DNA from: Acidobacteriota bacterium
GTDB taxonomy: Bacteria; Acidobacteriota; Blastocatellia; RBC074
DNA: 64,000 bases
Direction of reading: 5' to 3'
Assembly: GCA_016710075.1 (NCBI GenBank)
Contig: JADJLO010000035.1
Location: forward strand, 2,532 to 66,531
The notes under the pieces were generated by a model. It was not told where the DNA came from, searched no databases, and saw only the letters and a list, made by a program, of their open reading frames with translations. Both the position numbers and the translations under genes were made by a program. Below, piece by piece: positions 10,389 to 21,643 of this stretch. How positions within the stretch are numbered: position 1 is the first letter of the stretch; each line of letters begins with the position of its first letter.

Positions 10389-13205
10389 TCACAAAACAAT
10401 CCGGAGATAACTCAGGATTGATTGCCAGACGCCCTCCGCCATCAGATCAGTAAAAGCGAATTCGCTGCCGCCGGCCTCTGTTTTTGGCGGCGTCGGCTGC
10501 TTTCGAGGGCGAGGCGGAACGTCGTCGGTCACGGTAAAAAGCTGACCGTCACGCAGATAGAGTCGCTGCATCTCTTCCAGATTGAATGGGCGGGCTCCGC
10601 GACGATTGAAGACAGACAACTGATTGCCCGATTCATCGACTGCCCTGTCGCGATCGATTCCCTTGGAGAGGGCGAGCGCCTCGCCCTTCATCGGAAAAGT
10701 CGCAACCAGCCTGGGGCCGGGTTTCGGAGAGAAGCCGAAGATGTTCGGATTGTCCTCCGGCGACATCAACTGGACCACTCGCAACCCGTTTTTGCCGTCA
10801 GCAATATAAGCGAAAAGCGAGTTGTTGGTCATGCCCACCTTGACGTCGTGAGCATCGTTGATTTTACCCTCGGCATTGAAAGCCAGGTCGAGTTTTGGCT
10901 TGTCGGGTTTCTCGATATCGACGATGACCAGGCCTTCCGCGCCTGCGGCCACGTATGCATAGGTCCGGGCGACATAAAGATTCTTCGCACCGGCGATTTT
11001 GACTACGGCCGATTCGATTACACGAGGTTTTTCAGGCAGTGTGATATCGATGACTTTAAGGCCATCTCCGTCGACCACAAAAGCGTAGCGAAACTGCACG
11101 GCCACTGCCCCTGGAGCTTTGAACCCGCTCAATTCGGCAACCAGTCTCGGCCTGGCCGGATCGCTGATATTGACCACGACGACAGCGCCGCGCTCGGTTG
11201 TGATGTATGCGTAGGTTCCGGCGATTGTGATATTGGACGCACCGTTGAGCACTCCGTTTGGATTCCAGGTCAAAGCACGTTTCAGGAAATTGTTCGACGG
11301 GTTGCCGTCAAGCAGCGTGGCAGCGCTCACCAGAATCAGTCCCTCGTATTTATCGGCCACGTAAAGATAGGCATAGAGCGAATGGATCGGCTGCTTGTCG
11401 TCACGATAAATCGCCTCCTGGTTTTCGGGGCGATGCTTGCGCGTTGGATCCACACCCAGAGTCGTCGGCGAGGCGACCGCCGCGGCAAATTTCGTCTTGA
11501 CATAGAATCGCTGGCCGATGGGAGAGACCGGCGCCGTCGTGATCCGCTCGGAGAATCCCTTGTTGTCGATGTTCGCTATATCATAGATGCGCAAGCCTCC
11601 GGGGCCGTTTGCAACGTAGGCATATTCTCCGCGGACCTGAATAGACAGCGCCTCGCCGTTGGCCTGATGCTCGTATGCTTCCTCGAGCAGCGAGCCGCCG
11701 GAAGTATGTTTTCGATACTCGTCGGGATAGGCGAGTTTGTGAAGGTCCGAGCCGATGACGGCCTGAGGCTCACTGCGTTCGGTGACAACGACGGCATGAA
11801 TTCCTTCTCTGCCGGCAGCCACCCACGCATAGCGCCCGATGAAGTTGACGAAATTCGTCCCCTGCATCAACAGTTGAGCCATGATGGCATTGTTATCGTT
11901 GGCCTTCGAAACGTGGCAATCGGTGCAAACCTTGGTTTCGGAAGTGCTGACCGTATGCGGGACGTAAGTGCTGAATGCCTGTCCGCTGTAGCCTTCGGAC
12001 GAGACCGTCTGCTGCTGCGAATAGATAAACTCGCGATTCTGGTTCTGAGAGCCGACAAGAATGGCGCAGGTGGAGCGCGACGGAGCGATACGATGGCCGG
12101 TGACCGTTCCATCCTTGCCCAGCATGAAGATGTCGTCGCGCAGGGTCTGGAAGTTGTATTGAGTATAGTTGCGCAGGTTGTCCTGCCCCTCGTTGTGAAG
12201 CATCGGCTTCTGCTTGTTGGCGCTCATCGGCAGATGGCACCCGAAACAACTGGTCGTCCACGACGTATGGCAAACATAACAGGCCATATTGCTGTTGGCG
12301 TGCGCGAGTTTGGATTCCCCGACAGCCGAGTCTCCCCATGTCTTTCCATCACGCTGGACGGTTTTGGCGTAGGCGGAAGCGTCGTTGTAATCGCGTTTGC
12401 CGGGAGTCACCGTATCGACGGTCTGAACAACCCGCCACCACTTGCCGGGTTCGACCAGCGAATTCTGAACGATCTCGCCGTTCTTGAACTCGACTTCTTT
12501 GCCGTCCGGGTTCTTCTTCTTCAACGGACGTTCCGGGGTTGCCCGCTGGAACATTGGAATCTGGCGATTGCGTTCATCACGGGCCTTGATCCTGGTCAGG
12601 TCTTTGGCGACGGTGATCACCTTGCCTTTAAACCTCGCAGTGCCGGCCGAGGGTCCTGAGACTTGAAGCGTCGCGGGTTTTTCGATGGTCCCGTGGCAGT
12701 CTATGCAATCTATCTGAATCGCAGCGCGCGGCTCGTTGTACAGATTTCCGTTTCCGTGCACGTCACTGCCAACGTGGCAATCCGCGCAGTGCATGCCGGC
12801 TTTCTGGTGAATATCTTCGAGGTGAACGGCCTTTTTGAACTTCTCCGGATCGTCGGGTTTGATCTTCGTCCCGCGCGAGGTCATGAGATTCCCCTTGCGA
12901 TCGGTCCGGTAAACATTCCTGAATACCCAGCCATGGCCGTGGAAGTCGCCGAACTGCGTGCGTGTGGCTTTCGGATTGACGTCGTTCCAGATGTTGACGA
13001 GGAAGTCCCAACTCTGCCCCCATTTTCCGCGCAATGCCGATCCTTCAGGATTGCGGAACTGAATATTGTCCTTCTCTTCATCGCTGAGTTCAGGCTGTTT
13101 TTCGGGGTACATCAGAGCGCCGTCGGTCTCGTTATCCCACCATGTCATCCCGTAATAACTCGTCAGAGATGGTTCCCGCCGGGATGAATGTGGCAGACCA
13201 TGCAC
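10389..13205 (-). CDS. Multiheme c-type cytochrome fused to LVIVD-repeat beta-propeller (C-terminal part of a ~1,300 aa protein; frameshift near 13160-13205)
   Basis: Five CxxCH ([33 protein letters not shown]) followed by about six LVIVD repeats ([53 protein letters not shown]). Confidence 0.8.
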
Positions 13206-14302
13206 TGGCTTGACGGTATGCCGTTGGTCATCTGGTGTTTGATCGGGTGCCCCGATTCGTTTTTGGGGATCGTCGGGTCGGCAGTCTGAGTCATGCCGAG
13301 GTTTCCGAATGCCGCGAACCGGCCTGAATGCTTCGGATCGCGGTCATTAGCGTAAACGACGTGACAGCCGGTGCAGCCGGACATGCGGTAATCGCCCGGA
13401 TTATCGTTGGTCCCCGGCATGGAGAGCAGCGGATCGAGCAGGCGCGTCTTCTGCAACCCCTGAAATACCGGGTCGGTTCTCAAACGAGTGCCCAGACCGC
13501 GATCGCTGAGCTTCACATCCGGTCTGCCCGGCAATTCAAGAACATTCGGACTGCCGATATCCGAAGGAAGGCCTTTGAGTTCGCCGCCTCGCTCAAAAAC
13601 CCGCAGGATATTTCCAGGCTGCGTGATCTCCCAACGCGGCAGCGGCGAGAGAAATGGCAGGATGCCCTGCATCAAAGTCTCTTCAGGCGTCGGCTGCGGA
13701 TTGGTGAAGACCATCTGAATCGCGCCGCCGGCGCCGTAGCTTTCGCCAAAATGGGCGTCCTTGTATGGAAAGGCGCCGTTGTTGTAGAGCGCTGCACCCC
13801 ACAACATACCACCGTGAGTCATCATGCTCTTCTTCGACCAGACAACCTCTTTCGCGTGGCATTTGCCGCAGGCCAGATCGGCGGCACGGAAATCTCCGGG
13901 ATTGACGAAACGCACGAACTCATCGCTCTCCTTGAGCCACATGGCATTGAGCCTTTGCGGATTAGCCGTCGAGCTCCAGTGTTCAGGAAAACGCGGCTGA
14001 ACGTGTGCCTTCTTTTTATCCTGCGTTTCATTCGGATTGCCGCCGTGACAGTCAGCACATCCTATGTCCAGATCATCGTCTCCATCGACGTGCATCGATT
14101 CAGAATTCTTGTGACAGACAATGCAGCCGACACTGCGCGGATTGACCTTGCTCTTCCTCGCCTGAGCCTGCTGCTGAGCCAGGCTGTCGTCGGAATTAGC
14201 GGATGTTCGCGTGTTGACCGAGAGCATGCTCACAGCGATTGTCAGTATCAGGCTCGCGAGCAGTAAGATCTTGATTTTCCTTGCAGCGCTTTTCTGTTCC
14301 AT
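13163..14302 (-). CDS. N-terminal part of the same multiheme cytochrome (signal peptide + 5 heme sites)
   Basis: Start [31 protein letters not shown]; CIVCHK, CADCHGG, CGKCHAK, CTGCHVV, CMVCHIH; ends ...[10 protein letters not shown] and continues in another frame into 10389-13205. Confidence 0.75.
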
Positions 14303-14316
14303 AAATCCCTCAGGAA

Positions 14317-20646: not shown

Positions 20647-20662
20647 CTTGTTTATTTAAATA

Positions 20663-21643
20663 ATGCAGAACTTAAAGATAAAAACTCTGATCCTGCTTTC
20701 GTGCCTTATCGGCAGCCTGATGCTGATTGAGGCTTCAATGGCTCAGCAACAGACGCCTGGTGTCGCGCAGCAGAAACCAGTTGATTACGAGAAATTCACC
20801 CACAAGTCTCACACAGGAAGCGTCAAGGTTCCCGGCACGGGCGCATTCAGAGACCTCAAGTGCGATTCCTGCCACGACCGCCCTGCCGACAGGGAGATAT
20901 CCGGCGGCATCGTTCAAACCACACCACGCAACAAACAATTAAGCCTGAAATTCCCGGGCCATAAAGCATGCGCCGAGTGCCACATCGCTCAGTTCACGAC
21001 TCGGCCGCAACAGACCTGCACCATCTGCCACGAAACCCGAAACGGTCTCAACGCCAGACCGCCGCAACGCGACTTCCCTCAGCGATCCGATTTCAATGCT
21101 CTGTTTGACGCTAAACAGCACGAGCTGCACGCCGGCTACATCCTGCCTCAAACCGGCAAGAAGACAGATTGCGGCTTCTGTCATAAGCAGGACCAGAGAC
21201 CCGCAGTCCTGACGATTGCATCGCATCCGGAATGTTATGCCTGCCACTCACCCGGCAGCCAGGATCAGAAGGGTAAATTGAAATCCGGTTGCATCGTCTG
21301 CCACACGCAAGTCGTGCCTGCAGCACAGCCTTTCTCCGCGAAATACGTCAGCAGGGCCTACGGCGCGAAATTCACCCATAAATCTCACGTCGAACACATG
21401 GGCAATCGCTGCGATATGTGCCACACCATCTCCGCGGGCTACAATCAGCCGGCTCCGACATCTCTCAAGGTAAAGCAACACAACACAACCGCCGAAAAGA
21501 GCGGCCGCGGATGCTTCACCTGCCACGACGGCGGCGTCCATTTTGGACGGAAAGTATTCTGCGCAGAGCCGGGATGCGAGGGCGGTGGGTCATGCCAAAA
21601 ATGCCACACCAGAAATGATTTCAAGGTCTTCCCGTCTTCGTAA
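20663..21643 (+). CDS. Nine-heme c-type cytochrome (paralog of 19309-20646)
   Basis: Signal peptide; CDSCHD, CAECHI, CTICHE, CGFCHK, CYACHS, CIVCHT, CDMCHT, CFTCHD, CQKCHT; shares N-terminal EKFTHKSHTG motif with the upstream paralog. Confidence 0.85.
   Translation: MQNLKIKTLILLSCLIGSLMLIEASMAQQQTPGVAQQKPVDYEKFTHKSHTGSVKVPGTGAFRDLKCDSCHDRPADREISGGIVQTTPRNKQLSLKFPGHKACAECHIAQFTTRPQQTCTICHETRNGLNARPPQRDFPQRSDFNALFDAKQHELHAGYILPQTGKKTDCGFCHKQDQRPAVLTIASHPECYACHSPGSQDQKGKLKSGCIVCHTQVVPAAQPFSAKYVSRAYGAKFTHKSHVEHMGNRCDMCHTISAGYNQPAPTSLKVKQHNTTAEKSGRGCFTCHDGGVHFGRKVFCAEPGCEGGGSCQKCHTRNDFKVFPSS

Follow-up and report, generated by a model that had tools for sequence, protein, structure and literature searches.

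A group of six neighboring genes on contig JADJLO010000035.1 of an Acidobacteriota bacterium raises the question of what kind of electron transfer device, if any, it encodes. The genes lie within a 64,000-nucleotide stretch (the window), and a preliminary description drawn from the DNA alone had read them as a candidate trans-outer-membrane electron conduit, similar in gene logic to the Mtr/Pcc systems but with other components. It comprised a large secreted decaheme c-type cytochrome fused to an LVIVD beta-propeller, an outer-membrane beta-barrel, a secreted GlcG-like protein, two nonaheme cytochromes, and a stand-alone receiver domain. Acidobacteriota are among the most abundant bacteria of soils, peat, and activated sludge, and their respiration without oxygen is poorly understood. 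In one study of related Danish wastewater acidobacteria, all metagenome-assembled genomes (MAGs) encoded large proteins with at least 8 CXXCH motifs, whose substrates were stated to be unknown (PMC8100337).

All six genes were found within positions 10389 to 22029, with every element that had been named: 10 CxxCH motifs, a PF08309 propeller, the barrel, PF03928 domains, two cytochromes with 9 CxxCH motifs each, and the receiver. The core of the locus is the pair formed by the barrel and the decaheme-propeller cytochrome, which ranks among the best-conserved cytochrome modules of the phylum. The pair probably serves to move electrons at the cell envelope, and the observations do not fit a conduit of the Mtr type.

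The decaheme-LVIVD cytochrome and its barrel partner

All expected domains were present in the six genes, although three of the genes (those for the cytochrome fusion, the barrel, and the GlcG-like protein) do not form single open reading frames (ORFs) in the window, each being split by a frameshift. These three were analyzed in repaired form. The repaired cytochrome carries its 10 CxxCH motifs at residues 60, 82, 145, 310, 367, 505, 532, 674, 685, and 792. The LVIVD region that follows was matched by PF08309 with 98.6 bits against a cutoff of 20.2 (E = 1.2e-28), and six clear LVIVD-like motifs were counted, in agreement with the earlier estimate of about six repeats. In an AlphaFold2 (AF2) model, the propeller was confidently predicted with about 30 strands in about 7 blades, and Foldseek matches were 7-bladed propellers (6nau, 3u4y, and 1ri6), with BtuG and BamB also among the fold matches. 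The choice-of-anchor B family TIGR04312 matched the LVIVD region below its cutoff (E = 1.9e-8). In the homolog alignment, the propeller holds a single invariant His and no Cys; judged from these residues, a catalytic or other redox role as a metal or cofactor site is therefore unlikely.

An artificial join of separate cytochrome and LVIVD genes was considered and ruled out, as a 938-residue ORF alone spans five hemes and the LVIVD region without interruption, and the full-length homologs, including intact ones of 1303 residues, all carry the same fusion. The fusion is thus genuine. The preliminary description had named no described precedent for it, and full-text literature searches likewise returned no description of a multiheme-LVIVD fusion.

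At least 7,900 database proteins (clusters at 90% identity) matched the cytochrome at an E value of 1e-10 or better, and the best 120 homologs share its architecture at lengths of about 1,200 to 1,400 residues. Carriers include Blastocatellia, Pyrinomonadaceae, Terriglobia, Bryobacteraceae, and candidate orders; Granulicella aggregans M8UP14 is a cultured carrier from the Terriglobia, with its locus (L069) at about 350 to 356 kb of NZ_JACHIP010000003.1, and identity between classes is about 51 to 59%. Among full-length copies taken from genome loci, 66 of 70 keep all ten heme sites, the third site being CX2CH in 35 copies and CX4CH in 31, so that the heme motifs are indeed conserved in homologs. 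A further 15 His residues outside the heme motifs are invariant in the homolog alignment, and LVIVD was present in 7 of 7 diverse full-length representatives. A profile built from the heme domain only retrieved 3,146 clusters at 50% identity, and its top 150 were all family members or fragments, with no remote relative and no complete stand-alone heme domain among them. Some MAG records titled Heliobacteriaceae, Heliomicrobium, or Clostridia (L002, L011, L012, L018, L021, L025, L027, L030, L039, L040, L068, L074, L080, and L081) carry copies 51 to 81% identical to the query, mostly in the same barrel-cytochrome synteny; the taxonomic labels of these records look unreliable.

The barrel was modeled from a 99% identical protein (P0121), and AF2 predicted 18 long strands with a predicted local distance difference test score (pLDDT) of 74.5 and a predicted template modeling score of 0.75. 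The best structural match was AlgE, followed by OprD/Occ channels, and MtrB was not among the top 50 to 60 structural matches. The barrel had no Pfam or NCBIfam family match, 50 homologs had no Pfam match even at an E value of up to 1, and a PDB sequence search with the barrel gave no match. Strands 13 and 14 are joined by a highly conserved loop of about 70 residues, which probably fills the barrel lumen. At the N terminus lies a disordered extension of about 95 residues rich in Pro, Gln, and Lys. Across Blastocatellia and Pyrinomonadaceae, this extension is a disordered tail with a nearly invariant P-L-G-A-A-G-P motif (residues 40 to 95, approximately), and in Terriglobia it is a folded CarboxypepD_reg domain (L045:7774-9951). 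It had been foreseen that the barrel might belong to an unrelated family, such as alginate export, and never co-occur with cytochromes in relatives. As to the family, an 18-strand AlgE/OprD-like fold rather than an MtrB-like one was indeed found; as to co-occurrence, the opposite was observed.

Gene neighborhoods were compared across 82 loci, namely 81 around homologs plus the window. Wherever more than about 1.2 kb of DNA was available upstream of the cytochrome gene, a barrel homolog was found on the same strand, upstream, and within 2.7 kb. This applied to all 73 informative loci, whose carriers range from Blastocatellia to Granulicella. In the window, the cytochrome gene starts 14 nt past the barrel stop. 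The adjacency noted in the window is thus a constant feature of the family. A Blastocatellia subgroup (12 loci) carries a small SnoaL-like (NTF2-fold) gene between the two (e.g., L004:9470-9850). Over all 82 loci, the cytochrome was present in 79, the barrel in 68, the GlcG-like gene in 34, c7-type nonahemes in 21, a YbjN-like gene in 16, and the receiver in 8. Conservation of the whole six-gene arrangement across Acidobacteria, as had been proposed, was therefore not borne out: beyond the barrel-cytochrome pair, the layout is lineage specific.

Linkage of additional multiheme cytochromes to the pair was upheld in other genomes. Nonahemes of the c7 type adjoin the pair in 21 loci, and one homolog (P0258; 1648 residues, 28 CxxCH motifs) has six c7-type triheme units at the N terminus of the decaheme-LVIVD protein. 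Its c7 part holds 18 hemes, equal to both window nonahemes combined. This natural fusion points to a partnership between the c7 proteins and the decaheme. At its locus (L082:1468-7873), a divergent barrel gene whose product is only 26% identical to that of the window lies directly upstream and overlaps the cytochrome gene by 26 nt.

Another set of genes accompanies the pair in 13 to 15 Terriglobia loci, where a four-gene operon beside it encodes a NuoE/F-like NADH-binding flavoprotein, an iron-sulfur protein with two cyclic nucleoside monophosphate-binding domains, a His-rich protein with 4 to 5 transmembrane (TM) segments (about 306 residues, no family match), and a TM-anchored decaheme cytochrome. 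A tetraheme c554-like gene often follows. The genes of the operon are still linked in a rearranged Bryobacteraceae locus (L072), and the set looks like an NADH-linked electron-export route across the inner membrane. No homologs of this module were found within the window, and no further cytochromes occur in the 64 kb. A gene for a CHASE2-adenylate/guanylate cyclase is often found near the Terriglobia operon.

Location and function of the pair

The Sec signal peptide of the cytochrome has no lipobox Cys. In most homologs from Blastocatellia and Pyrinomonadaceae, the C terminus consists of a Pro-rich linker followed by a hydrophobic helix, short and rich in Gly, and then by a cluster of Arg and Lys (C termini from L003 to L044 and L074 to L081, with the window tail at 10389 to 10520). 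No conserved signature motif precedes the helix, and PEP-CTERM, LPXTG, MYXO-CTERM, and other sorting signals gave no above-cutoff match, the best being MYXO-CTERM at E = 0.024 in one homolog. Such a helix and basic tail would by default tether a Sec-exported protein to the inner membrane with its bulk facing the periplasm, and we infer this orientation for the cytochrome. Surface exposure, as put forward in the preliminary description, is at odds with the missing lipobox and with the C-terminal TM helix and basic tail of many homologs.

We tentatively favor a reading in which the cytochrome is a periplasm-facing decaheme that works with a channel, the barrel admitting a diffusible extracellular redox substrate and the propeller serving to dock or bind. 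Under this proposal, the core would be a two-gene module made of an 18-strand AlgE/OprD-fold channel and a Sec-exported decaheme-propeller cytochrome, the latter tethered in many lineages by its C-terminal TM helix and Arg-rich tail. The cytochrome would be located at the barrel or beneath it, and its propeller would be there for docking or binding, not to hold a catalytic metal. Electrons would be exchanged with periplasmic multiheme wires, which in the window would be the two nonahemes, each made of three c7-type units. Through the barrel, the heme chain would become accessible to a chelated metal, a shuttle of the humic or quinone type, or some other small oxidant or reductant. The whole would amount to channel-coupled periplasmic electron exchange and not to a cytochrome threaded through a wide pore of the Mtr type.

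Several observations weigh against this proposal. The adjacency of barrel and cytochrome genes proves linkage, not physical association. Confident prediction in the AF2 model of the cytochrome was limited to the propeller and a small beta-rich insert; the heme-bearing parts had a pLDDT of 30 to 50 and gave no usable heme-chain geometry or barrel contact, and a fold search with the model returned generic propellers only. Sequence conservation is very high, with about 54% identity across classes, and together with the long stretches of invariant non-heme sequence it would suit a substrate-specific enzyme just as well as a relay. As the C-terminal TM helix and basic tail are absent in Terriglobia and degenerate in the window copy, and as there is a weak resemblance between the LVIVD region and choice-of-anchor B proteins, the tail could instead be a cleaved sorting signal leading to surface display.

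Surface display would be expected if the pair were a true Mtr/Pcc-type conduit, with the decaheme part in or through the barrel and the propeller or the far heme end exposed as a terminal reductase or as a docking site for minerals, humic particles, or partner cells. We regard this as unlikely. Strict co-transcription of barrel and cytochrome, ten hemes, and periplasmic multiheme partners that are adjacent or even fused are all compatible with a conduit, as is a variable C-terminal tail if it is a sorting signal. LVIVD and choice-of-anchor B relatives have been described as cell-surface repeats (bioRxiv 10.1101/2022.05.06.490989), and separate beta-propeller genes recur in putative extracellular electron transfer (EET) clusters of the literature. 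However, a barrel of 18 strands is much narrower than the 26-strand MtrB, which ranked outside its closest structural matches, and its conserved loop probably occupies the lumen. Neither a lipobox nor a recognized sorting domain was found, and PF22113, used as a test for MtrC/MtrF-type proteins, gave faint or subthreshold matches only, in some homologs. Likeness to known extracellular wires also failed to hold: heme density is low (10 hemes per about 800 residues), conservation is far above that typical of surface cytochromes, and the family also occurs in aerobic heterotrophs such as G. aggregans.

The same low heme density, together with the long invariant non-heme segments and the invariant His residues outside the heme motifs, brings in a second explanation, namely that the cytochrome is a periplasmic multiheme enzyme for a small soluble substrate (an N, S, or Se oxyanion or a peroxide), that the barrel is its porin, and that the pair has no part in EET. 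This appears somewhat unlikely to us. A PDB sequence search gave marginal local matches of the cytochrome to octaheme nitrite reductase and NrfB, and ExtM (NF040943) matched the second half of the heme domain locally (59.4 bits, E = 2e-16 for the window copy; 83.2 bits, 1e-23 for the Granulicella copy). Occ/OprD-like folds are typical of small-substrate uptake channels, and the occurrence of the family in aerobic heterotrophs would also suit an enzyme. Yet the similarity to known enzymes is far under family cutoffs (800 bits for ExtM), and neither CxxCK nor another catalytic signature was seen in the cytochrome, all ten sites being of the CxxCH or CX4CH type; the number of conserved His residues would suffice for bis-His ligation. 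A long-range relay is also the better fit to the long heme wires of the c7 type, among them the 18-heme fusion.

A third explanation concerns the barrel, which would be an export or anchoring partner of the cytochrome-propeller protein, following a two-partner or Slam-like logic, and not a channel for substrate or electrons. That the pairing is invariant and the two genes are tightly coupled could be read in this way. AlgE-type barrels pass linear polymers, the lineage-specific periplasmic extensions (the PLGAAGP tail or CarboxypepD_reg) could recruit a partner, and structures of barrels capped by propellers are known, the fold matches of the propeller including BtuG and BamB. We nevertheless consider it very unlikely. 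The barrel shows no POTRA/DUF560-like features, and its likeness to FhaC, Slam, or ushers is limited to the generic barrel fold; a folded, heme-loaded 140-kDa protein is too big for an 18-strand pore, and there is no evidence for unfolded export of c-type cytochromes.

A wider extension of the favored proposal would make the pair a phylum-wide envelope machine of Acidobacteriota, in which an LVIVD-docked decaheme on a narrow AlgE-like channel is fed by c7 wires, or in Terriglobia by the NADH-linked module, possibly bypassing the quinone pool, and serves extracellular or humic respiration or electron uptake. This is speculative, and we would call it distinctly unlikely in its full form. If true, nominally aerobic soil and sludge acidobacteria would use a mechanism structurally unlike Mtr/Pcc conduits.

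What is at stake depends on which explanation applies. If the pair mediates extracellular or humic electron exchange, it would open iron and humic cycling, as well as soil carbon turnover, to study at the molecular level, and a narrow channel with a propeller-docked cytochrome would be a structurally new solution for an outer-membrane conduit. If it is an enzyme for a soluble substrate, it would still represent a new family of large multiheme enzymes. The cultured carrier G. aggregans M8UP14 makes the pair directly testable.

Layout of the locus, split genes, and neighboring genes

The barrel-cytochrome operon and the operon of the GlcG-like and nonaheme genes diverge from a common intergenic region. 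Coordinates of these and the other features are collected in Table 1.

Table 1. Features of the window and of the Terriglobia operon (positions without a locus prefix are those of the window)
Feature	Position	Strand	Remarks
Outer-membrane beta-barrel gene	14317..16177	-	609-620 residues when repaired; signal peptide
Decaheme c-type cytochrome with C-terminal LVIVD beta-propeller	10389..14302	-	1303 residues when repaired; Sec signal peptide
LVIVD beta-propeller domain of the fusion	10590..11815	-	About residues 830-1237; about seven blades; Pro-rich tail after it
Divergent intergenic region between barrel operon and GlcG-like/cytochrome operon	16178..16815		From gene layout
Secreted GlcG-like protein, Soli_cterm (Ig-like) plus tandem HbpS/GlcG-like domains	16816..19246	+	About 810 residues when repaired
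Secreted nonaheme cytochrome, three c7-type triheme units	19309..20646	+	445 residues; 9 CxxCH
Secreted nonaheme cytochrome, distant paralog of its upstream neighbor	20663..21643	+	326 residues; 9 CxxCH
Stand-alone CheY-like receiver domain	21670..22029	-	Response_reg, E = 4.4e-22; convergent with cytochrome operon
Two small secreted proteins downstream of the cytochrome	8805..10236	-	293 residues (9355-10236); YbjN/CesT-like (8805-9302)
Split OEP/TolC-like gene	680-2036	-	Pfam profile over two ORFs
Split MGH1-like glycoside hydrolase	34953-37500	+	Pfam profile over two ORFs
Split sulfatase	41419-43169	-	Pfam profile over two ORFs
Split TonB-dependent receptor (OMP_b-brl_4)	43789-47410	-	Pfam profile over two ORFs
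Terriglobia operon	L045:13894-23700		Also in L047, L049, L055, L060, L061, L063, L067, L070, L072

The three frameshifts were located by comparison with intact relatives and by three-frame translation, in which the protein resumes in another frame at each junction. The cytochrome is divided between two ORFs in different frames of the minus strand (13163 to 14377 and 10389 to 13205), with 2 extra bases at about 13166 to 13171 relative to contig L001. The barrel is divided between ORFs at 14726 to 16177 and 14317 to 14628, with a 2-nt deletion relative to L001 near 14866 (ACAC to AC). The GlcG-like gene consists of ORFs at 16816 to 17181 and 17189 to 19246, the frame changing at a TTTT run close to 17140, and its TIGR03437 domain (NCBIfam) is divided between both. 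The indels lie in short repeats or homopolymers. At the nucleotide level, contig L001 shares 96.3% identity with the window, and it carries the barrel (609 residues) and the cytochrome (1303 residues) intact, the latter (P0001) with 99% protein identity to the window copy. The same 90% cluster contains three proteins from sister MAGs that are also intact, with 1303 residues.

Could the locus be decaying in this genome, with three adjacent pseudogenes and real frameshifts? Each of three neighboring genes is indeed frameshifted, and the cytochrome is annotated at NCBI as two separate proteins, MBK7600641.1 (379 residues) and MBK7600640.1 (919 residues), identical to the window ORFs (locus tags IPJ07_19860 and IPJ07_19855). 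Splits are found across the whole window, however: at least four further genes (OEP/TolC-like, glycoside hydrolase, sulfatase, and TonB-dependent receptor) are likewise split, a single Pfam profile continuing in each case from one ORF into a second that overlaps it. Outside the indels, the frames are fully kept, with 99% amino acid identity to intact copies; the intact sister proteins and the position of the indels in short repeats or homopolymers also speak against decay, which we consider highly improbable. A programmed frameshift was ruled out, together with a pseudogene, by the unrelated split genes, the near-identical intact copies, and the sites of the indels. Given these other split genes and the intact sister copies, the frameshifts are most likely assembly errors, and the genes are presumably functional in the organism. 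The assembly is indel-rich along the whole window.

The GlcG-like protein was matched by PF03928 in 3 stretches (71 bits against a cutoff of 25), with the Soli_cterm domain N-terminal. Its gene is divergent to the barrel gene in 34 loci from three taxonomic classes, and HbpS-like domains were also found in the syntenic homologs of Terriglobia and Pyrinomonadaceae. We regard this secreted GlcG/HbpS-like protein as a frequent accessory with putative heme binding. Both nonahemes were matched by Cytochrome_C7 (PF14522) with 46.2 bits (445 residues) and 55.5 bits (326 residues) against a cutoff of 24.8, and their TIGR04257 (nanowire_3heme) score of 28.6 lies below the cutoff of 40. They had been called paralogs; the nine motifs of each were confirmed, and their paralogy is only distant (22% identity, E = 3e-12). 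The receiver is only loosely associated with the cytochrome operon, being adjacent in 8 loci that belong exclusively to close relatives.

Downstream of the cytochrome, a gene for the 293-residue secreted protein is present in 7 loci and the YbjN-like gene in 16. The first protein has a hydrophobic N terminus, no Cys, no His, and no family match, and the second has a signal peptide and belongs to a secretion-chaperone-like fold family; both may have an accessory or chaperone-like role, and they are confined to part of the lineage. Two oligopeptide-type ATP-binding cassette (ABC) ATPase genes come next. An Rfam scan of the window gave no match, and promoter-like matches were no commoner than in shuffled sequence, including in the divergent intergenic region. 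Terminator-like matches were modestly enriched (25 against a mean of 15.8, standard deviation 4.8).

Comparison with known systems

The MtrCAB, MtoAB, and PioAB systems of Shewanella, Sideroxydans, and Rhodopseudomonas resemble the locus in that a barrel gene is co-transcribed with a decaheme cytochrome and periplasmic multiheme partners are encoded nearby. The components differ. The barrel of the window is an 18-strand AlgE/OprD-like protein, whereas MtrB has 26 strands; MtrA is compact (about 330 residues), whereas the cytochrome of the window has 1303 residues, is heme-sparse over about 800 of them, and is fused to a propeller; and the locus has no lipoprotein cytochrome comparable to MtrC or OmcA, the decaheme itself being without a lipobox. 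Hidden Markov model scans with Pfam and NCBIfam gave no match to the MtrA/DmsE and MtrB families. With a barrel that is too narrow and of another fold class, a large cytochrome with sparse hemes, and no lipoprotein cytochrome, the observations do not fit an Mtr-type conduit.

AlgE (PF13372) shares the 18-strand barrel fold. By sequence, however, the barrel family belongs neither with AlgE nor with the OprD/Occ channels of Pseudomonas and Acinetobacter, and it differs from both in its long N-terminal extensions on the periplasmic side and in its constant pairing with a cytochrome. Genes for alginate or for an uptake pathway were not found near the barrel, its neighbors being cytochromes, the GlcG-like gene, and ABC ATPases.

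The Geobacter ExtHIJKL and ExtMNOPQS clusters (PMC5877670) are similar in the local homology of the heme domain to the 12-heme ExtM and in having a small porin-like barrel, ExtI, within a cytochrome cluster. They differ in their rhodanese, selenoprotein, and bc-type genes, which have no counterpart here, and in lacking a propeller, and the barrels are unrelated by sequence. Triheme polymer cytochromes of the c7 type (TIGR04257) from Geobacter are likewise comparable to the nonahemes of the window, each of which consists of three c7-type triheme units; in contrast, the window proteins score below the TIGR04257 cutoff, are about 22% identical to one another, and come from an acidobacterium.

Cytochrome cd1 nitrite reductase and quinohemoprotein alcohol dehydrogenases also join a c-type heme module and a propeller in one periplasmic polypeptide, and in these enzymes the propeller holds heme d1 or pyrroloquinoline quinone. 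The propeller of the window differs in having one invariant His, no Cys, and no cofactor signature, and it is attached to a ten-heme module.

Closest in gene content are proposed electron transfer clusters that combine a propeller with multiheme cytochromes and sometimes a porin. These include the Acidobacteriota porin-NHL-CytC cluster EET1, with an MtrB-like porin, as given in the supplement of a peat preprint (bioRxiv 10.64898/2026.05.27.727921), and clusters with a separate beta-propeller gene from SEEP-SRB1 (PMC5539420), Desulfovibrio ferrophilus (DFE_0451/0463, PMC9769857), and Tenderiales (uet, bioRxiv 10.1101/2022.05.06.490989). As far as these sources describe them, each of their propellers is a six-bladed NHL/DUF5128 protein with a gene of its own, whereas the propeller here is an LVIVD domain of about 7 blades that is covalently fused to the cytochrome. 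EET1, which also comes from Acidobacteriota, further differs in its MtrB-like porin, compared with an AlgE-like barrel here; it is set apart by its description and not by sequences. Overall, we conclude that what is new here relative to the described clusters is the propeller family, the covalent fusion, and the fold of the barrel.

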